A stretch of 12,618 bases of DNA. Source: Thermoproteota archaeon (lineage in GTDB: Archaea; Korarchaeota; Korarchaeia; Korarchaeales; Korarchaeaceae). The notes beneath the pieces were generated by a model. That model was not told the DNA's origin. It did no database searches and was given only the letters and a program-made list of their open reading frames with translations. This document shows positions 3 to 12,618 of the stretch, piece by piece. Every line of letters begins with the position of its first letter. The stretch's first letter is position 1. Both the position numbers and the translations under genes were made by a program. The stretch lies in NCBI GenBank assembly GCA_037917625.1, contig JAVCBY010000029.1, positions 1-12,618 on the forward strand, written 5' to 3'.

Positions 3-92
3 CTTCATCTTATCGAAGTCCACATCGATGAGTAGCGACCTCAATCTCTCAGCCCTCTCCTTCAGCTTTTCAACTCTCTCGATAAGATGAAG
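3..92. repeat. Perfect 14-bp inverted repeat (3-16 CTTCATCTTATCGA / 79-92 TCGATAAGATGAAG) flanking a 62-bp segment (17-78) inverted relative to rad50
   Basis: Read directly. The arms are exact reverse complements and pairing fails at 2/93 and 17/78. The loop is pyrimidine-rich on + whereas the rest of rad50 is purine-rich on +. Confidence 0.9.
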
Positions 93-1013
93 CAAGAGAT
101 AAACTATTTAGAGGAGGAGATCAGCTCACTAACGAAGGAGCTAAATGTCGTGGACATCGAGGAGGAATACCAGAGATCAAAAAAAGCTTTTATAGAGTTT
201 GAGAGGCTTAATGGACTTCTTAGGGAGAGAGAAAGAATTTCAAGCATTTTAAATGGACTTTCGGAGGAAATATCTTTGGATAGTGAGAAGGCTAGGGAAC
301 TCTCAGAGAGGATAGCGTCCCTGGGCTTCGAAGAGGCTGCCCTATCTGAAGCTAGAAGAGAGCTTAATGAAGCAGAGGAAAGAATGAGAGAGATAATTAA
401 AGCTAGAGGAGAACTTGAAGGAGCTTTGAGTGAACTGAAGAAGAAGATCAATGAGTTAGCAACGAAATCGGAGAAGTTAAGGAAGCTTAGGGAGAGAAAA
501 GAGAAATATGAGAGCTTCAGATCGAAAATATTGAAGATAAGGGAGATATTCAGTAGAGATAAGGGTATACAAGCTTCTCTCAGGGAGAGAGCTAAGCCAA
601 TCATAGAGAGGGAGCTCAATGAGATCTTCAGCTCATTCGGATTCGATTACGACTCAATAGAGCTCGATGAGAACTTCACCCCCATCCTGAGGAGAGGAGG
701 GAGAGCTTATTCATTCGATATTCTAAGCGGTGGGGAGAGGATCTCCTTAGCTCTTGCTCTGAGATTAGCTATAGCTAGATATCTGGTTTCAACTAAGATA
801 GAGTGCTTCATCTTAGACGAGCCAACCATACATTTGGATGATGAGAGAATAGATTCTCTGCTCGAGGCCCTCTCATCGCTCCAGATACCTCAGATAATAG
901 TGGTGACTCACTCCCCTAGGTTCAGGGACATAGCGTCTAGATCCATACTCGTCGGTAAGGTGAATGGTATTTCAAATATTGAGATTTTAGAGGAGGTGAT
1001 GGTAAGCGATTAA
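87..1013 (+). CDS. rad50: DNA double-strand break repair ATPase Rad50 (SbcC/SMC-like), C-terminal part; 5' end lies outside the window or is disrupted by the inversion at 17-78
   Basis: Long E/K/R/L coiled coil followed by ABC signature LSGGE, Walker B/D-loop FILDEPTIHLD and H-loop IIVVTH. Walker A and the Zn-hook are absent, so ATG 87 is probably an internal Met. Confidence 0.88.
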   Translation: MKQEINYLEEEISSLTKELNVVDIEEEYQRSKKAFIEFERLNGLLRERERISSILNGLSEEISLDSEKARELSERIASLGFEEAALSEARRELNEAEERMREIIKARGELEGALSELKKKINELATKSEKLRKLRERKEKYESFRSKILKIREIFSRDKGIQASLRERAKPIIERELNEIFSSFGFDYDSIELDENFTPILRRGGRAYSFDILSGGERISLALALRLAIARYLVSTKIECFILDEPTIHLDDERIDSLLEALSSLQIPQIIVVTHSPRFRDIASRSILVGKVNGISNIEILEEVMVSD

Positions 1014-1034: not shown

Positions 1035-1478
1035 TTGGGGGGTTGGTTGAGAGATAAGAAGAAGACCCCTTATGATGACCCCTTCGATCGCTTCATAAGG
1101 GACGTGATGGAGCTACTTAGGAAGATGGATGAGGATCTATCTAGCTTCATCAACGGTGATATATCCTGGGATTACGCTAATGAGGGAGAGGGGGTCTATA
1201 TTCCCCCCGAGCCCGATACTTCATCAGAGGGGGGGAGGGATTTGGAGTTAGAGGAGCAACTCGTTGATGTTATAGATCTGGAGGATGAGATCCTCATAGT
1301 TGCTGAAGTTCCTGGCATAAATAAGGAGGATATCTCAGTCAGGCTGAAGGGGAGGGAGATAACCATAAAGGCAGGGGATCTCCTCAGGAGGATACAGCTA
1401 TCTATAGAGCCTGACTCCGAGAGGATAAGGGCTACTTACAGGAACGGGATTTTGGAGATAAGGATACCTAAAAGGTAG
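1035..1478 (+). CDS. Small heat shock protein (Hsp20/alpha-crystallin family)
   Basis: LVDVIDLEDEILIVAEVPGINKEDISV and ATYRNGILEIRIPK are alpha-crystallin-domain motifs, preceded by an N-terminal DPFD-type segment. The TTG start is uncertain (in-frame TTG at 1047 is an alternative). Confidence 0.92.
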   Translation: MGGWLRDKKKTPYDDPFDRFIRDVMELLRKMDEDLSSFINGDISWDYANEGEGVYIPPEPDTSSEGGRDLELEEQLVDVIDLEDEILIVAEVPGINKEDISVRLKGREITIKAGDLLRRIQLSIEPDSERIRATYRNGILEIRIPKR

Positions 1479-1483
1479 GCTAA

Positions 1484-4400
1484 TTGACGAGGATCTCATC
1501 CTCCGACATATTCAGGTCCTTAGGTTATGAGTTTGAGACTTATTCTGAGGATGGGGTAAGGCCGGAAACTGTTGATGTCAGTTTCGGAGATCTCTTCCCT
1601 GGACTATATATCGGTGAGGGGAAGAGTAGGGAGATAGCAGACAAGAAGCTTTATCTACATCAGATGGAGGCTCTAAATTCCCTTGAGGATGGTAAGAATG
1701 TTATATTGATTTCTGGAACGGGTAGCGGGAAGACAGAGGGCTGGTTCTTCTATACCGCGAAGGGGAAGAGGACTTTAGCCCTCTATCCAACTTTAGCACT
1801 CGCAAATGATCAGATCAGGAGGTTGGAGAATTACTCGAGGGCCTTAGGTATGAACCCGCAGATCTTGGATGCTAGGAGGAGGGAGCTGCTCTTATCTTCA
1901 CGCGGGGCTCATGGCATAAGGGAGCTGATCGCCTCATCTAACTTAGTTATAACGAATCCCGCATTCCTGCTGGTCGATCTGAAGAGGCTCTCCAAAGGAT
2001 ACCTGTTGAGCTTCCTCAGGAAATTGGAAATGCTCGTCATAGATGAGCTGGACTTCTATGGGCCGAGGGAGATCGCTCTTCTTCTATCGATGATCAGGAT
2101 AATCTCCCTGATTTCAGAGAGGAAGCCTCAGATAGCTGTGCTCACTGCGACGCTCGGGAATCCGGATGATCTGGCTTCTTTCCTCACCTCGACCAATGAA
2201 AGGGAGACCTCTATAATAAGGGGAGATCCCTTCAGGCCCGGGAACGATGTCTACCTCGTATTGGGGAAGAATCTGAGGAGTATCTGGGATTGCCTCAAGG
2301 CTCATGAGACTGAGATCCTTTCGAGCGATGTAGGTGAGGATGTCAAGAACTCCCTGAGGGATTATAAGTCATTCGAGAGGGAAGTGTATAAACTAGTGGA
2401 GATCGCGAGATCTCTAAGTATAGAGTGCCCCCAACCCTTCATGGATCCCGCTGAGATCATATCGAATTATGAGAGAGATGAGGGAGTGACTGTGGTATTC
2501 ACGAACAGTATAAGGAGCGCTGAGAATCTGAGGAAGAGGTTGATCAACGAGTTTGGTTTAACTAGAGTGGCCTCCCATCACCACTTAGTACCTAAGGATG
2601 AGAGGGAGAGGATAGAGGATGCGGCGAGATCTGGGGAGCTCAAGATATTGATAAGCCCCAAGACACTCTCCCAAGGGATAGATATAGGGAATATCATAAG
2701 GATCGTTCATCTGGGGCTCCCAGATAGCTTGAGGGAGTTCAAGCAGAGGGAGGGAAGGAAGGGTAGGAAGGACGTAGGATGGACCGAGACTGTGATATTC
2801 CCGTTGTACAGGTGGGATAGGGAGCTCCTCTCAAGAGGAGCTGATGCCATGACTGAATGGCTCAAACTACCGCTTGAGATAACCCTCGTGAACCCATCTA
2901 ATAAGTACTCCATGCTCTTTGAGGGCTTATTCAAGGTGATAAACCCTCAGATGAGGGATAATCTGAGGGAGGAGGAGATCAGATTACTCACAGAGTTGGG
3001 GCTCATATCACAGGGTAACTTAACGGAAAGGGGAAAGAGAGTATGGGAGATGATCAACTTCTACGAGTTCGGTCCTCCTTATGGCTTCAAGAGGATCCTC
3101 AAGGAGGATAGTGAGTTCAGGTACTTAGAGGATATAGGCCACTGCGACTTAGTAGAGAGGTTCCAGCCTGGCTGCATAGATTATGGGAATGACTCCATAG
3201 TCCTCGATTTCAGGAGGAAGGGTAGGATAATAACTGGAGTTATCGAGGGGCCCTTCAATTACGGGACTATCTACTCCTTCGACGCTCTAGCCTTCATGCT
3301 AGAGGAGTACGAGAGGATAAAGACGGAATGGGGGGAGAGGCCCGATATATTAGATGATTACTACAGGGGTAGGATCGGATCTGAGGTAGTTTGCGTGGTC
3401 GATCCACCCATAGATGGATTCGGTCTCAGGACTAAAGTGTCAAATAGGGTCTATTGGAAGCTCAGTTCCTCTAAGGTGAGGCCCGTGAACGTAGGGAAGA
3501 GCACTATATTGCTCAGGGAGAGCTGGTCCCTCCCCGTGATAGCACAAACGGGGGGAGTTTACAGGGATTATACATACGGTATATCGATGGAACTGGATCC
3601 AAAGGAGGATTTAGCTTGGCTCAGGATAGGATTGGCCACTCTCTTGCTCGTCTTGAGGCTCTCCCTCGGTATACACGTAGATTCCCTCTATTACGAGGTA
3701 GCTAGCTTAGGTGAGAAGAAAGTCATGATGCTCCATGAACCGGAATCTGCTGGTTTGATAGAGAGGTTGGACTGGCTCAAGGTCGCTAGGGAGATCGATC
3801 TCTTCAAGCCCGATGACCTCTCAGAGATAATGATGATGCTGATAGATGAGGAAGCTCACTATGAGTTCGTGATCGGGGGCCTCAACTGGGAACTAGCGAA
3901 GAGATTCGCTAGAAGGGCTGTGGATTACATCTTAGCTAAGCAGATGATCCCCTTCGTCCTAGAAGGGAAGAGTTTCATGATTCCAAGGCCCTCCAGAGCA
4001 AATAAAGTTCTCTCTCTAGACTTCATCGGAGTTAAATTATCGGATTCAATATCGATCGGATTCCTAGGGCTCTATGATGGGGAGAGTATCGAGACGCAAC
4101 TTGTAGTCAAGGAGTTCTTCGACTCTACAGGAGTGGATCTCTCGCCAATCGAGAGGTGTGTGAACGAGGGCTTCATCATGGTCAGCTGGGACTTCGATTC
4201 CCTATTGAAGGACCTCTTCTCGATGAATCAGAGGACTCTTTGTTACGTACTTCAGGGCCTGAGGGAGGAGGGAAAGTTCTTCGAGCTCAAACCTCTAGTC
4301 GAGGATTTCCTCGACATGAGCCCCGTATCCCTAGAGGAAGTAGCGAGGAGGATCTGGGGGATAAATAGTTCCATAAAGGACGTGATTATGGAAGCTAAAA

Positions 4401-4573
4401 GGTCCATTGGGGAGATAGAGGAGAAAAAAGGGGCAAACTGGGAGAGATATACGAAGTATCTCAGGGAAAAATCGAAAAATATTATTGAGGAGAGAGCTAA
4501 GGCTATCTGCCTAACTTTCCTCGCTTTAAGTCGAGGGACGGAAGTTAATAGACCGGGACCTCCCCATCTATGA
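1484..4573 (+). CDS. SF2 DEAD/DEAH-box helicase, Hrq1/MrfA (COG1205)-like, with C-terminal accessory domains
   Basis: Q motif LYLHQ, motif I GTGSGKT (1715-1735), Ia YPTLALANDQ, Ib ITNP, II DELD (2042-2053), III TAT, IV VVFTNS, V TLSQGIDIG, VI QREGRKGR. YPTxALAxDQ, TNP and ATLGNP are typical of the Hrq1/MrfA group. Confidence 0.88.
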   Translation: MTRISSSDIFRSLGYEFETYSEDGVRPETVDVSFGDLFPGLYIGEGKSREIADKKLYLHQMEALNSLEDGKNVILISGTGSGKTEGWFFYTAKGKRTLALYPTLALANDQIRRLENYSRALGMNPQILDARRRELLLSSRGAHGIRELIASSNLVITNPAFLLVDLKRLSKGYLLSFLRKLEMLVIDELDFYGPREIALLLSMIRIISLISERKPQIAVLTATLGNPDDLASFLTSTNERETSIIRGDPFRPGNDVYLVLGKNLRSIWDCLKAHETEILSSDVGEDVKNSLRDYKSFEREVYKLVEIARSLSIECPQPFMDPAEIISNYERDEGVTVVFTNSIRSAENLRKRLINEFGLTRVASHHHLVPKDERERIEDAARSGELKILISPKTLSQGIDIGNIIRIVHLGLPDSLREFKQREGRKGRKDVGWTETVIFPLYRWDRELLSRGADAMTEWLKLPLEITLVNPSNKYSMLFEGLFKVINPQMRDNLREEEIRLLTELGLISQGNLTERGKRVWEMINFYEFGPPYGFKRILKEDSEFRYLEDIGHCDLVERFQPGCIDYGNDSIVLDFRRKGRIITGVIEGPFNYGTIYSFDALAFMLEEYERIKTEWGERPDILDDYYRGRIGSEVVCVVDPPIDGFGLRTKVSNRVYWKLSSSKVRPVNVGKSTILLRESWSLPVIAQTGGVYRDYTYGISMELDPKEDLAWLRIGLATLLLVLRLSLGIHVDSLYYEVASLGEKKVMMLHEPESAGLIERLDWLKVAREIDLFKPDDLSEIMMMLIDEEAHYEFVIGGLNWELAKRFARRAVDYILAKQMIPFVLEGKSFMIPRPSRANKVLSLDFIGVKLSDSISIGFLGLYDGESIETQLVVKEFFDSTGVDLSPIERCVNEGFIMVSWDFDSLLKDLFSMNQRTLCYVLQGLREEGKFFELKPLVEDFLDMSPVSLEEVARRIWGINSSIKDVIMEAKRSIGEIEEKKGANWERYTKYLREKSKNIIEERAKAICLTFLALSRGTEVNRPGPPHL

Positions 4574-5828: not shown

Positions 5829-6893
5829 TTGATCCTAATAGTGACCACCACTGGGAGATGCAACTTGAAATGTTTGTACTGCGGTGGCAGCTTCGATCCG
5901 AAGCTCGTACCTTGGTCAGAGGAATGTAAATTGGAGGATCTCGTGGATTTGATAGTGAGGACTGGATGCGATGTGGTCTTCTACGGGGGAGAGCCTCTCC
6001 TCAACTCCAAACTAATAATGGATGTGATCGACTCATTGAAGTCAAGGGAGTGGGGAGGAAGGTTCATAATACAGACGAACGCTACCCTATTTGAGGATCT
6101 GCCTCTAAGCTATTGGCTATCCTTCGACTCCATACTCCTCTCGGTAGATGGGAGGCCTGAAGTGAATGATGAAGGTAGAGGGAGGGGAAATTATGAAAAA
6201 GTCATAAAAGTAGCGAAAATTTTGAGAAAATATGGATTCTCTGGAGATTTAATAGCTAGAATGACCGCTTGGGAGAGGACAGATATATATGAGGAAGTGG
6301 CTCATCTCCTGAGCTTGGGGCTATTCGACCACATACACTGGCAGCTCAACGTCATCTGGTCTGAGAGATGGAATTTCAGGGAGTGGACAGAACGCTCATA
6401 TCTACCTGGGCTTAGGAAATTAGCCTCCTTATGGTTGGAGGAGATGAGGAAAGGGAGGGTTTTGGGGATAGCCCCCTTCTTAGGTATAATGAGGGCCGAG
6501 CTATTCGGGGATCTGCCTTCCCCTCCCTGCGGGGCCGGTAGCGAGAGCTTCACCTTACTGCCTAACGGTAAGATCTTAGCTTGCCCTATAGCTGTTGACT
6601 CCAGTTGGGCGGTCGTCGGGGAGCTCGGTAGTGGTATCAGAAAAGTTGGGATAGGAGAGCCCTGCAAGAGCTGCGATTACTTCAAATACTGCGGAGGTAG
6701 GTGCCTTTACGCTTACATGGAACGTCTATGGGGAGAGGAGGGGTTCAGGGAGGTCTGTGATGTGACTAAGGAGACAATAAAGATAGTTTTAGAGAACGGA
6801 GGGGAGATAAGATCTCTGATCAGGGAGGGAGTGATATCCGCTGAGGACCTTTATTATCCCCGCTATAATAACACGATGGAGGTAATCCCTTAG
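5829..6893 (+). CDS. Radical SAM/SPASM domain protein, resembling the TIGR04084 (AF_0577) family
   Basis: CNLKCLYCGG (CX3CX2C), FYGGEPLL, IQTN, and a SPASM-type Cys set (PCGAG...ACP...CKSC-x5-CGGRC...C). The C-terminal EVIP resembles the end of this family (assignment from recall, not an HMM search). Confidence 0.88.
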   Translation: MILIVTTTGRCNLKCLYCGGSFDPKLVPWSEECKLEDLVDLIVRTGCDVVFYGGEPLLNSKLIMDVIDSLKSREWGGRFIIQTNATLFEDLPLSYWLSFDSILLSVDGRPEVNDEGRGRGNYEKVIKVAKILRKYGFSGDLIARMTAWERTDIYEEVAHLLSLGLFDHIHWQLNVIWSERWNFREWTERSYLPGLRKLASLWLEEMRKGRVLGIAPFLGIMRAELFGDLPSPPCGAGSESFTLLPNGKILACPIAVDSSWAVVGELGSGIRKVGIGEPCKSCDYFKYCGGRCLYAYMERLWGEEGFREVCDVTKETIKIVLENGGEIRSLIREGVISAEDLYYPRYNNTMEVIP

Positions 6894-7172
6894 GTGATCG
6901 AGTTGAATTGGGAGGATCTGCTCATAGAAGCTATGAAGAGCAAGACGAGGATCAGGATCCTAAAATACATCATGAAGGTGGGAGGAGCTAACATAAGCAG
7001 GATATCGAGAGAGTTGGGAATTTCTTACACGAGCGCTGAGAGGAACTTAGAGGCTTTGAGCAGAGCTGGTATACTGGAGGAAGTGAGACTGGGGAGGGTG
7101 AGGGTGTACAAGATAGGGGAAGGAGAGAACATTATTAAGTTAATAAAGTGCTTAACTGGAGTGATTGATTAA
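6894..7172 (+). CDS. ArsR-like winged helix-turn-helix transcriptional regulator
   Basis: SKTRIRILKYI...NISRISRELGISYTSAERNLEALSRAGILEEVRLGRVRVY is a wHTH pattern. It directly abuts the radical SAM stop. The true start may be TTG 6903, after GGTGAT. Confidence 0.85.
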   Translation: MIELNWEDLLIEAMKSKTRIRILKYIMKVGGANISRISRELGISYTSAERNLEALSRAGILEEVRLGRVRVYKIGEGENIIKLIKCLTGVID

Positions 7173-7174
7173 AA

Positions 7175-8716
7175 TTAATTCCAGGGGGATTTCTTCGGTC
7201 CTTTCCTCACGTAAGTCCTATAGTCCCTGTAGTACTTCCCGTGAGACCCCTGTCCTCTCCTATTCAGATCCTTCCTCACGACTACCTTCCTATTATTAGC
7301 TCTCTCAACGAAACCGTTTCTATCGGAATCTCTCACCGCTAGATAACTCGCGAAGATCACGATGAATGCACCTATCCCCGCGCTCATCCAGAGGTTATCC
7401 AGCCCTATCCAGGATAGGGAAGCCGAAGCTACCTCCGGCATCTTGACAGTTATCCTCTTGCTCACCCAGTTCGACCAAGCACCCTTATCATCCTTAACCC
7501 TGAAGCTCACGGTATAATTCCCGCTCTTTGAGTATGTATAGTTTAGATAGTCGTGAGGTATGGAGTTCCCCTTGAGCTCTCCACTGAATATCTTCCCATC
7601 TCCCATATTCCACTCGTAAGCCACCACGTTACCATCAGGATCTACGCCCATCCCCTGGAATAAGAACGTAACATTATCGAGTGTCTTTATAGATATGATG
7701 GAGGCCTGAGGCGGCCTATTGCCCTTTACAGAGACGCTGACAGTGTAATAGGAAGATTCAAGTCCCTTTGAATCGATAGCCTTCACCTTTACAGTATAAG
7801 CGCCCTCCTTTGAGTAAGCATACTTGATCTCAGCATCCCCCTTCCTCACAGTACCATCACCGAAATCCCAAGCGTATGTTATCGGATCGCCGTCAGGATC
7901 GTAGGCGGATGCCCTGAATGATATAGTAGCCCCGGGGTTCGGATCCTGTGGACTGAACGTCACTGAAGTTATGACAGGCGCTCTATTCGGGGGCTTCGTC
8001 TCAGTCATCTTAGACTTAATGTATATCTTGACGGATGTCTCATTCGAGATAGCCCCCTTGTCATCAGCGACCTTCACAGTAACGATGTAAGTGCCCTCCC
8101 TCGAGTAAGCGTGAGTGACCTTAGTTAGGTTAGCCCCCTGCTGCTTATTACCGTCACCGAAATCCCAATAAAAGGTAGTTACGCGGCCATCGGGATCTGA
8201 AGCTTCTGCCACGAACGTAACCTTTTCATTAGGTTGCGCTGGATTTGGATAAACATCCTTAAGCTCCACTACGGGCGGATAATTTGGTTTCTTGACAGTT
8301 ATTGTAACAGAATAGATGTTTGATTCCTTCAACCACGTATTCTTCACGCTTACCTTAACTGTATACTGCCTGTAATCCTTATAGGTATGGGATACATCCA
8401 CACCATAATAAGCTATTATAGAAGCCCCCTTTTGCGTCTCATTTATCTTATAACCGCCAGTTTCTTTGAGAGTCTGCCCATCACCGAAATCCCAAATCCA
8501 CTCCTTTGGCATGTTATCCTCAGTCGCGGTTTTATTGAAGGCTGCCACAGCGGTGAAGTAGACAGTAGTCCCCCTCACCGTATATGATACGCTGATTATC
8601 TTAGGTGGAGGGAGCGAAGATGCTACTGCTTCACATCCGGTATCTGCCGAAGCATTCATCGCCATGAGCAGAATTAACGCTAAGCCTGTGGAAACTAACA
8701 TCTTCGTTGCTCTCAT
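7175..8716 (-). CDS. Secreted, C-terminally membrane-anchored PKD-repeat cell-surface protein (4 PKD/Ig-like domains)
   Basis: Signal peptide ending ASA; WDFGDG x3 plus WNMGDG; DPDG motifs; Y-x-V-x-V-x-V-x-D strands; C-terminal TM (LWMSAGIGAFIVIFASYLAV); basic cytoplasmic tail; about 7 N-x-T sequons. Confidence 0.9.
   Translation of the reverse strand: MRATKMLVSTGLALILLMAMNASADTGCEAVASSLPPPKIISVSYTVRGTTVYFTAVAAFNKTATEDNMPKEWIWDFGDGQTLKETGGYKINETQKGASIIAYYGVDVSHTYKDYRQYTVKVSVKNTWLKESNIYSVTITVKKPNYPPVVELKDVYPNPAQPNEKVTFVAEASDPDGRVTTFYWDFGDGNKQQGANLTKVTHAYSREGTYIVTVKVADDKGAISNETSVKIYIKSKMTETKPPNRAPVITSVTFSPQDPNPGATISFRASAYDPDGDPITYAWDFGDGTVRKGDAEIKYAYSKEGAYTVKVKAIDSKGLESSYYTVSVSVKGNRPPQASIISIKTLDNVTFLFQGMGVDPDGNVVAYEWNMGDGKIFSGELKGNSIPHDYLNYTYSKSGNYTVSFRVKDDKGAWSNWVSKRITVKMPEVASASLSWIGLDNLWMSAGIGAFIVIFASYLAVRDSDRNGFVERANNRKVVVRKDLNRRGQGSHGKYYRDYRTYVRKGPKKSPWN
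7857..8495. repeat. Three exact 15-bp direct repeats TCACCGAAATCCCAA (7857-7871, 8154-8168, 8481-8495) encoding the PKD WDFGD cores
   Basis: Read directly. Spacings are 297 and 327 bp, in frame with the PKD domain period. Confidence 0.85.
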
Positions 8717-8981: not shown

Positions 8982-9779
8982 CTATCCGATCTGAGCGATC
9001 ATATTATCAACTATTTTGCCGAATGCCTTAGCCACAGGGCTCTCGGGATCCTCTATCACTATGGGCTTACCCTCATCAGTTAGCTCAACCACTTTGGGGT
9101 CTATTGGGATCTCACCGAGGAAGGGGACTCCCTCCTCCTCCGCGAGCTTCCTGCCGCCGCCTTCCCCGAATATCTTGATCTTCTCACTCCTGCATATGAA
9201 GTAGCTCATGTTCTCGATTAGACCGAGGACCTTTATGTTCATTGCCTTAGCCATCCTTATCGCCCTCCTGACATCCATCAGGGCGATCTTCTGAGGAGTG
9301 GTCACTATAACGATACCATCCAGAGGGATGAGCTGCATCACGCTCAATGGTTCATCTCCTGTTCCAGGCGGGAGATCTACGACCAGAAAATCTAGGTCCC
9401 CCCATTTCGTACCTTCCACTAATTCCTGTATCGCTTTGGCCTTGAGAGGTCCTCTCCATATGACAGCGTCTTCATCTTCTATCATGAAGCCCAATGAGAT
9501 CGCCTTTATCCCTAAGGGGCCTTCGATAGGGATTAATTTATCCCCCTCGACATACACCCGGGAGCCCAGTAGGCCTAAGGCCCTAGGGACATTGGGCCCC
9601 GTGAGATCAGTATCCAATATGCCGACGGAATGACCCCTCCTAGCAAGCTCAGCAGCTATGTTCACGGAGACAGTAGTCTTACCGACTCCCCCCTTTCCGC
9701 TAATCACAGCTATCTTTCTCTTGACATATTTCAGATTCTCTAACTCTTTATGTTGTGGTTTCGAGCCCTCACTCTTCAT
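8982..9779 (-). CDS. mrp: Mrp/NBP35/ApbC family P-loop ATPase (Fe-S cluster carrier family)
   Basis: SGKGGVGKTT deviant Walker A, LDTDLTGP, WRGP, DLPPGTGD, VTTPQ, GLIENMS, IFGEGGG. Start placed at ATG 9779 (GGTGA 6 nt upstream) rather than GTG 9809 from the ORF track. Confidence 0.92.
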   Translation of the reverse strand: MKSEGSKPQHKELENLKYVKRKIAVISGKGGVGKTTVSVNIAAELARRGHSVGILDTDLTGPNVPRALGLLGSRVYVEGDKLIPIEGPLGIKAISLGFMIEDEDAVIWRGPLKAKAIQELVEGTKWGDLDFLVVDLPPGTGDEPLSVMQLIPLDGIVIVTTPQKIALMDVRRAIRMAKAMNIKVLGLIENMSYFICRSEKIKIFGEGGGRKLAEEEGVPFLGEIPIDPKVVELTDEGKPIVIEDPESPVAKAFGKIVDNMIAQIG

Positions 9780-9811
9780 CGAAGTCACCAACTCAGCGAC
9801 CCATATCACCG

Positions 9812-9823
9812 AAAAAACTTTTT
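9812..9823 (-). promoter_or_regulatory. AAAAAGTTTTTT element between the kinase and mrp: possible oligo-T terminator and/or BRE-TATA-like promoter for mrp
   Basis: Begins 6 nt after the kinase stop and ends about 33 nt upstream of ATG 9779. Function is ambiguous. Confidence 0.3.
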
Positions 9824-9829
9824 GGAGAT

Positions 9830-10930
9830 TTAGCGTGAGTAAAACCTACCTAACACATAAGGAAGGGCTATCCTCCCCTTGACTCTCAGCCCTATCGATA
9901 TCAGTTGACCGTGCTTGAGGGGACAATCCGTCACCCTCTTCCAACTAGCCCCCTCTTGAATCCAGACTCCTCCGGGCGCCCCCATATCGCTTATCCAGAA
10001 CTCCCCACCTACTCTGGATATCTCCACCCACCCGAGAGGGGGGCCTGGGGGTAAGAGCCTCCTGTTCCCTATCTCCTGGAGGCAGACATCAGCATTTCCA
10101 GTTCCTCCCTGTCTCTTTATCCTCCCTATCGTTACCTTTGAGGTCAAATTTATTACCTTACCTTGGATGACGAGCCTCGGCCCCTCCCCTTTGGGTAGCC
10201 TCCTCCCCATTAGGGCTAAGGACATCTCACTGGCGCTCCCGAATCTCCCCCATGGCTCCGGATCTAGGGACCTCTCCAAGACGTGCTTGAGGTTATCGGA
10301 AATATTGCTTGGGATCTTTATGGATGAGGGATCCTCGGGAGGATCTTTGCCTGTTAACATGAAGAGGAGGAGCGCTCCAATTGAATATATATCGGATTCC
10401 GGGGAAACCTCCCCCTTGAGGAATTCAGGGGCGCTCCATCCCAACGTAGCGGCTAGAGACTTGCTCCCGAACTTCCTAGCGACCCCCATATCTATTAGGA
10501 CAGGATGCAATGGCTTCGGGAGTATTATGTTATCCGGTTTGATATCGCCGTGAGCGATCCCCAATGAATGTATTCTTTCAAGAGCTGAGAGACATCCTAA
10601 AGCTACTCTAATAGCATCTCCCTGCGTTGCAATTCTCCCTGAGAATGCTTCCCTCAGTGTTGGGCCTGGAACGTATTCCTCAACTAGAGCTGGAGCATTG
10701 GGGATCCACTCTATGAATCTGACTATGTTTTCGTGAGGCGTTGGCCTTGAGACCTCCTCGAGTATCTCAGCCTCCTCAACTAGGAGGTACCTCGATAGTT
10801 CATCGTCCCTAGGGAGCTTCAATACCACGAGCTCCTTATCCCTCCTCGCTAGGAAAACTTTGGAGAATCCCCCTTCTCTCAACATCCTTACCAGTGTGTA
10901 CTTATCGATCCTCCCCAATCCTCTGCTCAT
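9830..10930 (-). CDS. Hanks-type (eukaryote-like) Ser/Thr protein kinase with C-terminal degenerate FHA-like domain
   Basis: EGGFSKV Gly-loop, VVLK, helix-C Glu, HENIV, HGDIKPDN catalytic loop, DMG, APE, SDIYSIG. C-terminal VTIGR...FWISDMG..GGVW...LKHGQLISIG follows the FHA strand pattern. Confidence 0.92.
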   Translation of the reverse strand: MSRGLGRIDKYTLVRMLREGGFSKVFLARRDKELVVLKLPRDDELSRYLLVEEAEILEEVSRPTPHENIVRFIEWIPNAPALVEEYVPGPTLREAFSGRIATQGDAIRVALGCLSALERIHSLGIAHGDIKPDNIILPKPLHPVLIDMGVARKFGSKSLAATLGWSAPEFLKGEVSPESDIYSIGALLLFMLTGKDPPEDPSSIKIPSNISDNLKHVLERSLDPEPWGRFGSASEMSLALMGRRLPKGEGPRLVIQGKVINLTSKVTIGRIKRQGGTGNADVCLQEIGNRRLLPPGPPLGWVEISRVGGEFWISDMGAPGGVWIQEGASWKRVTDCPLKHGQLISIGLRVKGRIALPYVLGRFYSR

Positions 10931-11991
10931 ATCTCAGGCACACCCAGGTCCTCCGATTCATATGAGAACCTGAGTCTAGCGACTTCAGCGACATCTATGA
11001 CTGCTCCATTGACGAGCTTAACGAATTCCCTTCCTATCCTATTCCCGTTAACCCAAGTCCCATTTAAACTCCCCAGATCCCTTATGAAGTACCCCTCCTT
11101 CGTCCCCTTGATCTCGAAGTGCCTCCTCGATATGTAATCTAGATCATCGTCGGGGACATAGCCCACGAAATCCCTCCTACCGAAAGCTCTGACACCGAGC
11201 TCAAGATCTATTGTCAATCCATTTGGCCCCAGCAATCTAGCTCTCTTCCCCTCAGCTCTTACTCGAATACCTTCGTATATCTCTTCCCTCCTGGGGGCTT
11301 CTACTGGCTTTCCTCTGGTTACCCCAAATGGCCTCTCTGGGATTTCCTCCAACCTCGAGACCTCCTCAGGCCCTCCCTCATACTCATGCGGAGCTTCCTC
11401 CTCAGTCTCTATAACTTCTATCTCAGCTCTTATGAGTCTAGTCAGGGAGAGCATGAGTATTAGCGAACCTACTATTCCCAATGCTGATCCTACGATCGCA
11501 CTAGTGTCATAACTAATTATAACTGCGAAGGGGGATGGTATTATCGTCACAGATCCTATCATCATGGATCTCGATCCTAATAGTGAGCTGAGCTTGATGA
11601 ATGAGTATGCCATCAAGATGAGGAGAATTATGAAAAATAACGCCGCTAAGAGTAGGGGTGGTCTTGACATCAGCCCTTCTATTCCAACGGGTCCTTCTAC
11701 CCCATAGAAAATTGAGATCGAAGTGAAGATCACGAGAGCGGGTGTTAAGTATTTGAAGAGCTTCCTCAACTTGCAGAAGACTCCCCCTAATGATCCGCAT
11801 ATGCTACTGAGTCCTATAGTGAAGATAGCTAGCGATACTATGCAGAGGAGAGCTGAAGCTATTAGGACTGGAATAGAATACTCACTCGGCACTATTTGGG
11901 GAAAGTAAGCTAAAGCTAGGGAGATTCCCGAGAGAAGCATTGGTATCGTTGAGAGCCTGAGCTTCCTCAGACCATGAGCGAGCTCACTCAT
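10927..11991 (-). CDS. Polytopic membrane protein (about 6 TM) with acidic linker and C-terminal FHA domain
   Basis: Six hydrophobic segments in the first ~190 aa, then an E/P-rich linker and a canonical FHA (FGR...ISRRH...DLGSLNGTWVNG). The stop overlaps the kinase ATG (ATGA 10930-10927). Start is ATG 11991 (preferred from promoter spacing) or 12006. Confidence 0.9.
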   Translation of the reverse strand: MSELAHGLRKLRLSTIPMLLSGISLALAYFPQIVPSEYSIPVLIASALLCIVSLAIFTIGLSSICGSLGGVFCKLRKLFKYLTPALVIFTSISIFYGVEGPVGIEGLMSRPPLLLAALFFIILLILMAYSFIKLSSLLGSRSMMIGSVTIIPSPFAVIISYDTSAIVGSALGIVGSLILMLSLTRLIRAEIEVIETEEEAPHEYEGGPEEVSRLEEIPERPFGVTRGKPVEAPRREEIYEGIRVRAEGKRARLLGPNGLTIDLELGVRAFGRRDFVGYVPDDDLDYISRRHFEIKGTKEGYFIRDLGSLNGTWVNGNRIGREFVKLVNGAVIDVAEVARLRFSYESEDLGVPEI

Positions 11992-12006
11992 ATCAGTCCC
12001 ACACAT

Positions 12007-12053
12007 GGGAAAGAGTTAAGTTAAATAAAATACCCTTGAACCAGGGGAGAAGC
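12007..12053. promoter_or_regulatory. Compact divergent promoter between the FHA-membrane gene and the B12 radical SAM gene
   Basis: GTTAAGTTAAATAAAA at 12015-12030. CTTAAC on - lies at -29..-24 of ATG 11991, and TTAAATA on + lies at -33..-27 of TTG 12054. Confidence 0.55.
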
Positions 12054-12618
12054 TTGAGGCTGGACGTCGCTCTCATACATCCTCCGAGCGTCTACGACTT
12101 CAGGAAGAGCCCATCTTACGCTAGTATGATCAGTGAGGTAATTCCTTCCATGTATGTCTTCGATATGATGCCATATGGATTCCTGACGCTAGCCACATAC
12201 CTCGAGAGGAACGGCCTCAATGTCGCTACATTCAACTTAGCCGCTAAGATGTTGAAGGACCGCTCCTTCGATGTCGAGAAGTACATCAAGAAAATAGAGG
12301 CTGATATCTTCGGAATAGACTTTCATTGGGCTGTCCATGCTCAAGGAGCGATGGAGATAGCTAGAATCATTAAGGAGATTCATCCGGAGAGTAAGGTAGT
12401 ACTGGGAGGCCTCTCATCCACTTACTTCAGGTATGAGGTGATAAGGTACCCCTTCATCGATGCTATATTAACGGGAGATAGCGCGGAGCTCCCACTCCTC
12501 AGATACGTAGAGGAGGGACCTGAGAAGGCGCCTAATATCATCTGGAAGGATGGAGGAAGGATAAGGGAGAACCCATTGAGATGGATCCCTGAATCCTTAG
12601 ATGACTTCGAGATAGACC
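12054..12618 (+). CDS. Cobalamin (B12)-binding domain radical SAM protein, resembling the TIGR04190 family; 3'-truncated by the window end
   Basis: Manually translated open frame: MRLDVALIHPPSVYDFRKSP...VFDMMPYGFLTLATYLERNG...IFGIDFHWAVHAQGAMEIARIIKEIHPESKVVLGGLSSTYF...ILTGDSAE..., a B12-binding Rossmann pattern. The CX3CX2C motif would lie beyond the window. In-frame TTG 12036 is an alternative start. Confidence 0.85.
   Translation, partial: MRLDVALIHPPSVYDFRKSPSYASMISEVIPSMYVFDMMPYGFLTLATYLERNGLNVATFNLAAKMLKDRSFDVEKYIKKIEADIFGIDFHWAVHAQGAMEIARIIKEIHPESKVVLGGLSSTYFRYEVIRYPFIDAILTGDSAELPLLRYVEEGPEKAPNIIWKDGGRIRENPLRWIPESLDDFEID

Follow-up and report, generated by a model that had tools for sequence, protein, structure and literature searches.

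How might a soluble protein kinase be held at the membrane of an archaeon? This question is raised by two overlapping genes on contig JAVCBY010000029.1 of a Thermoproteota archaeon (Korarchaeaceae; assembly GCA_037917625.1), of which a stretch of 12,618 nucleotides (nt), hereafter the window, was analyzed as a whole. The first gene encodes a polytopic membrane protein that ends in an FHA domain, and the second encodes a Ser/Thr protein kinase. Archaeal Ser/Thr phospho-signaling is known mainly from the archaellum network of Sulfolobus, and the link between kinases and the membrane is poorly understood in Archaea. The pair described here offers a candidate for this link in Korarchaeia that is both compact and present across the lineage, and it joins the uncharacterized DUF973-type membrane family to a predicted FHA reader. 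A first-pass annotation of the window had described two genes overlapping by ATGA, the one encoding about six transmembrane segments and an intact FHA domain, the other a kinase with no transmembrane segment and a degenerate FHA domain, and had read them as a candidate transmembrane phospho-signaling module. The description of a phospho-signaling pair was borne out: the two genes are conserved and tightly coupled, with the same architecture found throughout the family. Our preferred reading, to which we assign a probability of about 0.5, is that the membrane protein would serve as a phospho-dependent membrane tether for the cytosolic kinase.

The two genes form a conserved overlapping pair in Korarchaeia

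The stop codon of the FHA gene and the start codon of the kinase gene share the four nucleotides ATGA (coordinates in Table 1). Since Met6 of the membrane protein (position 11991) is invariant in an alignment of 23 rows and most of the orthologues start with it, 10927..11991 is the likelier extent of the FHA gene; the upper coordinate given by the first-pass annotation falls on the same methionine. We scanned one genome per species (185,579 species genomes) and found full-length relatives of the membrane protein encoded at 13 loci, along with 66 other loci that share the FHA domain only. The first-pass annotation had named recurrence of the pair across genomes as a check of its proposal, and the pair did recur: the kinase gene directly follows in 13 of the 13 related loci (in L003 the contig ends within it), and the ATGA overlap is kept in all of them, down to 34% identity for the membrane protein and 60% for the kinase. 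Protein searches returned 34 clusters of membrane FHA proteins and 19 clusters of kinases, all with one architecture and without fusions, and the members of the 19 kinase clusters are all 365-369 amino acids (aa) long. The source names given for the 34 membrane-FHA clusters are all Korarchaeum or Korarchaeota, and the closest protein matches are likewise named Candidatus Korarchaeum or Korarchaeota. Across the protein searches and the genome scan, neither family occurred outside records of Korarchaeia type.

One related locus, L013 (JAGGTC010000197.1), is labelled Deltaproteobacteria yet carries the complete Korarchaeia-type block of genes around the pair, with protein identities of 60-68% for the kinase, the Mrp-type ATPase and the radical SAM enzyme, 50% for the PKD protein and 34% for the membrane FHA protein. 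This is probably a mis-binned archaeal contig. Kinase cluster P0052 is likewise labelled Deltaproteobacteria.

In the junction DNA of the window and the 13 related loci, an invariant, Shine-Dalgarno-like GGTG lies about 12 nt 5' of the kinase ATG, inside the FHA gene, and may be a ribosome-binding site; the Gly codon of the C-terminal tail of the FHA protein is GGT in 14/14 sequences. The kinase is predicted to be translationally coupled to the membrane FHA gene in a two-gene operon. Upstream of the FHA gene, an A/T-rich, TATA-like element (TTTTATTTAA) is a putative promoter, and elements related to it (CTTTTTTACTTAA / TTTATTTA[A]CTTAAC) stand at an equal distance from the start in all 13 related loci. 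At the other end, a (C)TTTTT(T)AC element resembling the one 5' of the FHA gene comes right after the kinase stop codon in 10/12 related loci; L001 has AAAAAGTTTTTCC at this place, as in the window, and L002 has no such element. Counting similar elements, a T-tract is present 3' of the kinase in the window and in 11/12 loci, about 35-45 nt before the start of the next gene, which encodes an Mrp-type ATPase. The T6 tract of the window likely marks the end of a two-gene transcript and/or belongs to the promoter from which the following gene is read. The pair would then be a bicistronic unit, and the Mrp-type gene would have its own promoter. A tricistronic operon including the Mrp-type gene was also considered and was made less likely by the T-tract and the promoter-like element 3' of the kinase stop codon. 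A scan for sigma-70 promoters and intrinsic terminators gave nothing useful; these models are not applicable to archaea.

The membrane protein carries a canonical FHA domain

FHA domains read phosphothreonine, not phosphoserine. The C-terminal part of the membrane protein matched Pfam FHA (PF00498) at residues 275-338 with an E value of 9.3e-14 and 52.1 bits against a cut-off of 20.7, and the same family was matched by 23/23 relatives. Residues G276-R277, S293-R-R-H296, S313, N315 and T317 are invariant in all 23 rows and line up with SRRH and GSxNGT in FHA domains of solved structure; G276-R277, S293/H296 and S313/N315/T317 are the ones that we take to be the phosphothreonine contacts. Fold matches included GarA, FhaA, OdhI and Ki67, with the FHA domain of Sulfolobus ArnA at rank 17, and the mean column identity of the domain reached 84%. 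Taken together, these features define a canonical FHA domain that is predicted to be a phosphothreonine reader. The 12 residues that follow it and close the protein (...E-D-L-G-V-P-x-I) are nearly invariant as well, and this acidic tail is a putative docking motif and/or the carrier of the ribosome-binding site.

The kinase combines a complete catalytic domain with a probable FHA-derived C-terminus

Residues 11-227 of the second protein matched Pfam Pkinase (E 8.5e-30; 104.5 bits against a cut-off of 31.7), and Pkinase families were the only ones detected in this protein above threshold by Pfam, with no TPR or rubredoxin domain. The catalytic motifs G20-G21-F22, K38, E52/E53, H127-G-D129, N134, D147-x-G149, T162 and P168-E169 are invariant in 18/18 orthologue rows. 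The catalytic loop reads HGD instead of HRD, placing the enzyme among non-RD kinases, and the activation segment is short, with no conserved Ser/Thr except T162 of the P+1 loop. The closest solved kinase by sequence was PknG, at a modest 68.8 bits, and the two align in their non-RD loops and in their short activation segments; the closest by fold was PknB (Foldseek E 1.3e-12). The protein has no hydrophobic segment, its maximum Kyte-Doolittle value over 19 residues being only 1.13. It is therefore best described as a predicted cytosolic, motif-complete Hanks-type non-RD Ser/Thr kinase.

Beyond the catalytic domain, four weak but concordant lines (Pfam, hhalign, AlphaFold 2 [AF2] and Atlas) suggest that the kinase C-terminus is derived from an FHA domain. 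FHA was the sole Pfam family to match this region, below threshold and in 3/13 members at E <= 1 (E 0.042), with PF00498 scores of 14.7-14.9 bits that fall short of the gathering cut-off of 20.7. Aligned by hhalign with the FHA domain of the membrane partner (E 0.0016; probability 16%), it gave 79 columns in register, with GR placed on GR and W-I-S-D-x-G on F-I-R-D-L-G. The AF2 model showed an all-beta C-terminal domain whose strands, about 10 in number, are ordered much as in FHA domains, with predicted local distance difference test (pLDDT) values of 50-90, and the three nearest Atlas feature clusters, which serve as leads, were all FHA (0.88-0.89). One source also names the kinase orthologue P0047 an FHA domain-containing kinase. 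The profile of this domain retrieved only chance-level ZapC matches (E 0.6-0.8) among PDB sequences, and a fold search with the whole kinase model returned kinase domains only. In a profile search among longer proteins, this pseudo-FHA domain was found only in the 19 orthologous kinases, with no fused forms.

Of the phosphothreonine-contact set, the pseudo-FHA keeps only G269-R270: the Ser and His positions are variable (N/D/G/S and L/I/A, respectively), and S-x-N is replaced by A/S/I-P-G. Because only this Gly-Arg remains, the domain probably no longer reads phosphothreonine. Its mean column identity is nevertheless 81%, versus 74% for the catalytic core, which makes it a clean case in which the reading residues of an FHA domain are lost and strong constraint remains. 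An insertion after the Gly-Arg carries two invariant motifs, QGGTG (274-278) and PPGPP. Outside the catalytic core, no Thr but T277, within the former motif, is invariant, and in the kinase as a whole only T162 is invariant besides it, making T277 a candidate phospho-site.

The membrane domain resembles an anchor more than a receptor

Both hydropathy and the AF2 model (pLDDT of about 90 for the bundle formed by the N-terminal 200 residues) place six hydrophobic helices in the membrane protein. Lys and Arg residues number 2 at the N-terminus, 4 in loop 68-86 and 2 in loop 138-148, versus 0-1 in the remaining loops, which fits a topology with both termini inside and with loop 68-86 predicted to be cytoplasmic; C70, C78 and K85-Y86 are invariant in this basic loop (23 rows). 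The presumed external loops of the window protein measure just 9, 12 and 7 residues. Because they are so short, the domain looks more like an anchor, or a membrane-state sensor, than like a receptor for ligands, and the proposal of a membrane receptor made by the first-pass annotation is not supported.

The same annotation had tentatively likened the N-terminus to DUF973-type proteins. At the superfamily level this likeness found support: PF06157 (DUF973) was matched by 7/23 relatives (best E 1.6e-7, Pfam), and the family profile of the membrane protein, searched against 1.84 billion representatives, retrieved 12 proteins, namely, 4 FHA-bearing family members and 8 shorter ones, 5 of which carry PF06157 (3 of those above cut-off). 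The nearest Atlas clusters, again as leads, were DUF996/DUF973 at 0.86-0.87. The window protein itself had no PF06157 match at E <= 0.1 and only weak, below cut-off matches to DUF6095 and DUF5518 in Pfam. A fold search with the whole membrane-protein model retrieved FHA domains only and gave no PDB fold match for the membrane domain; the top matches were to EmbR, and with TM-scores of 0.23-0.24 and root-mean-square deviations of 18-19 Å they are uninformative on the membrane bundle. Judged from its relatives, the domain would be a divergent DUF973-type bundle. DUF973 is an uncharacterized family, and its mentions in the literature covered here carry no functional assignment. The mean column identity of the membrane domain was 55%, compared with 84% for the FHA domain and 81% for the pseudo-FHA; constraint is thus strong on the FHA domain, the kinase and the pseudo-FHA, and weak on the membrane domain and the linker.

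This linker, which joins the bundle to the FHA domain, is modelled as disordered (AF2, pLDDT < 50) and spans 50-67 residues across relatives. In the window it is 60 aa long (195-254) with 18 Asp/Glu, or 18 Asp/Glu and 10 Lys/Arg when counted over 193-254, and its IETEEE and GVTRG stretches contain two Thr. The first-pass annotation had noted an acidic, Thr-containing linker; its presence and acidity were confirmed, but Thr as a functional feature was not, with linker Thr found in 15/23 rows, absent from 8/23 including both 83%-identical relatives, and no conserved Ser/Thr column in the 23 rows.

These observations bear directly on the main rival reading of the pair, in which the membrane FHA protein would itself be the regulated output: the kinase would phosphorylate it, and FHA-phosphothreonine contacts within or between copies would switch the DUF973-type domain, which would have some transport or other membrane function, in the way that PknF regulates the ABC transporter Rv1747. 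A disordered linker adjoining the FHA domain and the two Thr of the window linker speak for such a switch, as does the shared layout of Rv1747/PknF, described in PMC3138270 and PMC3908365 as a polytopic membrane protein with cytoplasmic FHA in an operon with a kinase. We consider this explanation possible but not probable, given that the linker Thr are absent even in close relatives and that no Ser/Thr column is conserved. FHA domains do not read phosphoserine, and the DUF973 domain has no known activity. A GarA-type intramolecular switch through a linker phosphothreonine, as a conserved feature, was ruled out by the non-conserved linker Thr.

A proposed phospho-dependent tether for a cytosolic kinase

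In the tether model that we favor, the kinase would autophosphorylate on Thr, with T277 of the pseudo-FHA QGGTG loop as the best candidate site, and the FHA domain of the membrane partner would read this phosphothreonine and thereby keep the kinase membrane-bound. The complex would be anchored by the membrane domain, or this domain would sense membrane state, not an external ligand, and both polypeptides would act jointly like one membrane-anchored kinase. Recruitment through FHA-phosphothreonine contacts is proposed because of FHA biology and the precedents of ST1565/ST0829, ArnA/ArnB and Rv1747/PknF, and T277 is proposed as the site because it shares invariance among the Thr of the kinase with T162 alone. 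If the tether model is correct, the bacterial principle of a soluble kinase with a membrane FHA partner would be extended to Archaea. As judged from the genes around the pair, the neighborhood gives no indication of downstream targets.

Several points weigh against this model. The FHA part of the AF2 model is poor (pLDDT 30-58), and no phosphatase gene lies in the window. Adjacency alone is weak evidence because the genes around the pair are syntenic as a block in these genomes; what sets the pair apart is only its conserved 4-nt overlap. Position +3 from T277 is occupied by Ala, which is not a classic FHA +3 preference. The T277 loop could instead be structural or ligand-binding, and the FHA domain could read a different phosphoprotein.

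A more specific version of the tether model assigns a role to the pseudo-FHA itself, which would have turned from a phospho-reader into a read partner, with QGGTG at the former phosphopeptide face and phosphorylated T277 docked by the membrane FHA. We regard this docking scheme as tentative and rather unlikely. Should it hold, the pair would amount to a two-polypeptide transmembrane Ser/Thr kinase, with FHA and pseudo-FHA on a DUF973 scaffold, and would represent an undescribed archaeal membrane-signaling design as well as a first function for DUF973-type domains.

A further alternative draws on the pseudo-FHA being as conserved as the catalytic core. Here, the two proteins would be co-expressed without the FHA domain binding the kinase. 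The FHA domain would collect, at the membrane, other proteins phosphorylated by this kinase or by different ones, and the pseudo-FHA would bind a partner of its own independently of phosphorylation; the linker or tail of the membrane protein, both acidic, could be this partner. A basic GR-x-K/R-R/W stretch is kept in the pseudo-FHA, and in the membrane FHA protein an acidic run is conserved and the acidic tail is invariant. The conservation of this tail is, however, partly explained by the embedded Shine-Dalgarno-like GGTG (GGT 14/14), and we judge the alternative to be unlikely. Residues R277 and S293 of the FHA domain and K38 and T277 of the kinase are testable in relation to the tether model. 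In practice, the genetic intractability of Korarchaeia leaves biochemical or heterologous tests.

Relation to known FHA-kinase systems

The first-pass annotation stated that no characterized system with this architecture was known. We found no publication on this pair when searching for FHA with Korarchaeota/Korarchaeum and for archaeal transmembrane FHA with kinase, in a coverage that leaves most subscription journals outside. The statement nonetheless proved too strong, as Rv1747/PknF (PMC3138270) and GlnX/PknG/OdhI (PMC9769921) are known from bacteria. The pair is an uncharacterized archaeal version of such bacterial FHA and kinase pairs and is a member of none of the systems compared, none of which has a DUF973-type domain fused to FHA or a kinase with a C-terminal pseudo-FHA. 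By analogy, it would be functionally comparable to mycobacterial Rv1747/PknF and GlnX/PknG/GarA.

Rv1747/PknF of M. tuberculosis is presented in PMC3138270 and PMC3908365 as a two-gene operon of an FHA-bearing ABC transporter and a kinase, regulated on the principle of FHA-phosphothreonine recognition. Like the Korarchaeia pair, it thus joins a polytopic membrane protein, with cytoplasmic FHA next to a disordered linker, to a Hanks-type kinase in one operon (PMC3138270; PMC3908365). Rv1747, an exporter of the ABC type, has two FHA domains and a linker in which the phospho-Thr are defined, whereas the membrane protein studied here has a DUF973-like six-helix bundle, no ABC domains (Pfam), one C-terminal FHA and a linker without conserved Thr. 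The kinases also differ, since that of the pair is soluble with a pseudo-FHA tail and belongs to an archaeal host, in contrast to PknF, which we take to be membrane-anchored.

In the actinobacterial GlnH-GlnX-PknG-OdhI/GarA system, a kinase without transmembrane segments is encoded beside its controlling membrane protein and acts via an FHA protein, and GlnX has four transmembrane helices and, in the periplasm, two four-helix-bundle domains that each measure about 150 residues, with GlnH as the binding protein (PMC9769921). The kinase of the pair resembles PknG in the sequence features given above, but neither TPR nor rubredoxin domains were detected in it, and the FHA domain of the pair gave a sub-threshold NCBIfam match to OdhI. 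Unlike GlnX, the membrane protein has external loops of 7-12 residues and no binding-protein gene beside it, and its FHA domain belongs to the membrane polypeptide, where the bacterial one is a small soluble substrate.

Among archaeal systems, ArnA was correctly described by the first-pass annotation as soluble, being a zinc finger and FHA protein (PMC5007285). Encoded in an operon with the vWA protein ArnB, it represses archaellum genes, with ArnC and ArnD as kinases (PMC5007285; PMC4858521). According to the same sources, ArnA/ArnB and S. tokodaii ST1565/ST0829 are archaeal cases in which an FHA protein binds its partner in phosphorylated form and is itself a substrate of Hanks-type kinases. 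The pair differs from ArnA/ArnB in that its FHA is membrane-integral (six transmembrane helices) and paired with the kinase itself, and no zinc-finger, vWA or archaellum genes were found in the pair or its neighbors (Pfam; related loci). Haloarchaeal FHA-CdvA-like proteins are reported from ESCRT loci (PMC11188069).

FhaB/FipA (Rv0019c) of the pknA/pknB cluster resembles the pair in being a membrane-tethered FHA near Ser/Thr kinases. FhaB is a small protein with a single membrane anchor. It was the best NCBIfam match of the FHA region of the pair, at 33.6 bits, far below the cut-off of 125. A primary paper on FhaB/FipA (PMC2797604) is retracted. Finally, eukaryotic Chk2/Rad53-type kinases and bacterial FHA and kinase fusions hold a kinase and an FHA-type domain in one polypeptide, as does the kinase of the pair, and bacterial kinases with PF00498 were among its distant matches (P0081, P0141). 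In comparison with these kinases, the FHA-like domain of the pair is C-terminal and degenerate, with only Gly-Arg kept.

Table 1. Features of the gene pair and of the surrounding window.
Feature	Position	Strand	Remarks
Membrane FHA protein gene	10927..12006	-	Open reading frame of 359 aa; probable start Met6 at 11991 (354 aa)
Six-helix membrane domain, DUF973-like	11425..11958	-	Residues ~17-194; predicted from AF2 model, hydropathy and PF06157 matches in relatives
Disordered acidic linker	11245..11424	-	Residues 195-254; starts with an AEIEV-acidic run
Canonical FHA domain	10966..11244	-	Residues ~255-347; Pfam FHA, invariant set of predicted phosphothreonine-binding residues
Acidic C-terminal tail S-x-E-x-E-D-L-G-V-P-x-I	10930..10965	-	Conserved in the protein alignment
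ATGA stop/start overlap	10927..10930	-	FHA gene/kinase gene; same overlap in 13/13 related loci
Ser/Thr protein kinase gene, soluble product	9830..10930	-	366 aa
Hanks-type kinase domain	10205..10900	-	Residues ~11-242; Pfam Pkinase, invariant motifs
FHA-derived beta domain (putative)	9833..10183	-	Residues ~250-366; keeps G269-R270, lacks SxxH and S-x-N
QGGTG loop, Q274-G-G-T277-G	10097..10111	-	Just past Gly-Arg; invariant in 18/18 and 13/13 rows
A/T-rich TATA-like element TTTTATTTAA	12021..12030	-	~30-35 nt upstream of the probable FHA-gene start
T6 tract	9812..9817	-	12 nt past the kinase stop codon
Mrp/NBP35/ApbC-type P-loop ATPase gene	8982..9809	-	Directly downstream of the kinase gene
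PKD surface protein gene	7175..8716	-	Four PKD domains
Radical SAM/SPASM enzyme and ArsR-type protein genes	5829..7172	+	TIGR04084; second product 92 aa
B12-binding radical SAM gene	12036..12617	+	TIGR04190
Hsp20-family and DEAD/Helicase_C genes	1035..4573	+	5 nt between the two
Rad50/SMC-type open reading frame	87..1013	+	C-terminal third only

Gene neighborhood

The syntenic block around the pair consists of a divergent B12-binding radical SAM gene, the pair, the Mrp-type ATPase gene, in some loci a citrate synthase gene, and genes for the PKD protein, a helix-turn-helix (HTH) protein, a radical SAM/SPASM enzyme and methionine adenosyltransferase. The first-pass annotation had drawn on this neighborhood for a wider model in which the pair is a sensory receptor with the Mrp variant and the PKD protein as outputs, or an antiviral module. 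The Mrp-type gene does lie 20-46 nt 3' of the kinase gene on the same strand in 12/12 loci, the PKD gene is co-oriented, and the Mrp-type protein is atypical in that the second Cys of its CXXC motif is missing in 13/13 sequences. These outputs are nevertheless not supported, as the neighborhood is a general housekeeping block in which citrate synthase is inserted in L005-L013 and methionine adenosyltransferase, radical SAM and HTH genes lie beyond, and as a T-tract and a promoter-like element stand between the kinase and Mrp-type genes. External loops of 7-12 residues would furthermore leave the membrane protein little to sense with. As for an antiviral role, the kinase domain scores on the PADLOC mad6 and PD-T4-6 kinase models, but these are matches of a generic kinase domain only (mad6 covers profile positions 50-266 of 659), the FHA protein had no PADLOC match, and the neighbors are housekeeping genes, not companion defence genes. 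The NCBIfam score for MAD6, the kinase of the MADS defence system, was 91 bits against a cut-off of 460, and a defence role was rejected on the PADLOC and NCBIfam scores. The wider model as a whole appears very improbable.

The neighboring genes showed some further features of their own. In the Mrp-type ATPase, the region of the CXXC motif reads F-I-C-R-S-E-K in the window and C-P-G-G-E-K in most relatives, and the second Cys is missing in the window and in 12/12 orthologues, where solved relatives have C-x-x-C. The protein scored below NCBIfam equivalog cut-offs and may have a function other than carrying Fe-S clusters. Translation probably starts at the ATG at 9779, not at the GTG at 9809. 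The citrate synthase gene (Pfam E 3.3e-148) found between the Mrp-type and PKD genes in L005-L013 (e.g., L010:11050-12216) is absent in the window, L001 and L002, where about 260 nt separate these two genes. The PKD protein has an N-terminal hydrophobic, signal-like segment and, at its C-terminus, a hydrophobic segment followed by a very basic tail; the position of its gene is kept in 10/13 related loci, the rest being cut by contig ends. The gene for the radical SAM/SPASM enzyme is directly followed by that of the ArsR-type HTH protein, and the B12-binding radical SAM gene and the FHA gene diverge from start codons only about 44 nt apart.

At the far end of the window, the Rad50/SMC-type open reading frame matched only the C-terminal third of such ATPases (Rad50_Sulf 558-868 of 872, NCBIfam). 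Because of this partial match and the stops present in all three plus-strand frames within bases 1-86, the gene appears to be split, truncated or frameshifted; its PADLOC matches, to mad3 and LmuB, are at domain level. The DEAD/Helicase_C protein (1,029 aa) has a C-terminal extension of about 600 residues without a family match and domain-level PADLOC matches to BrxHI and SngC, and its gene shares 29 nt at the 3' end (4545..4573) with the methionine adenosyltransferase gene, which is convergent to it.

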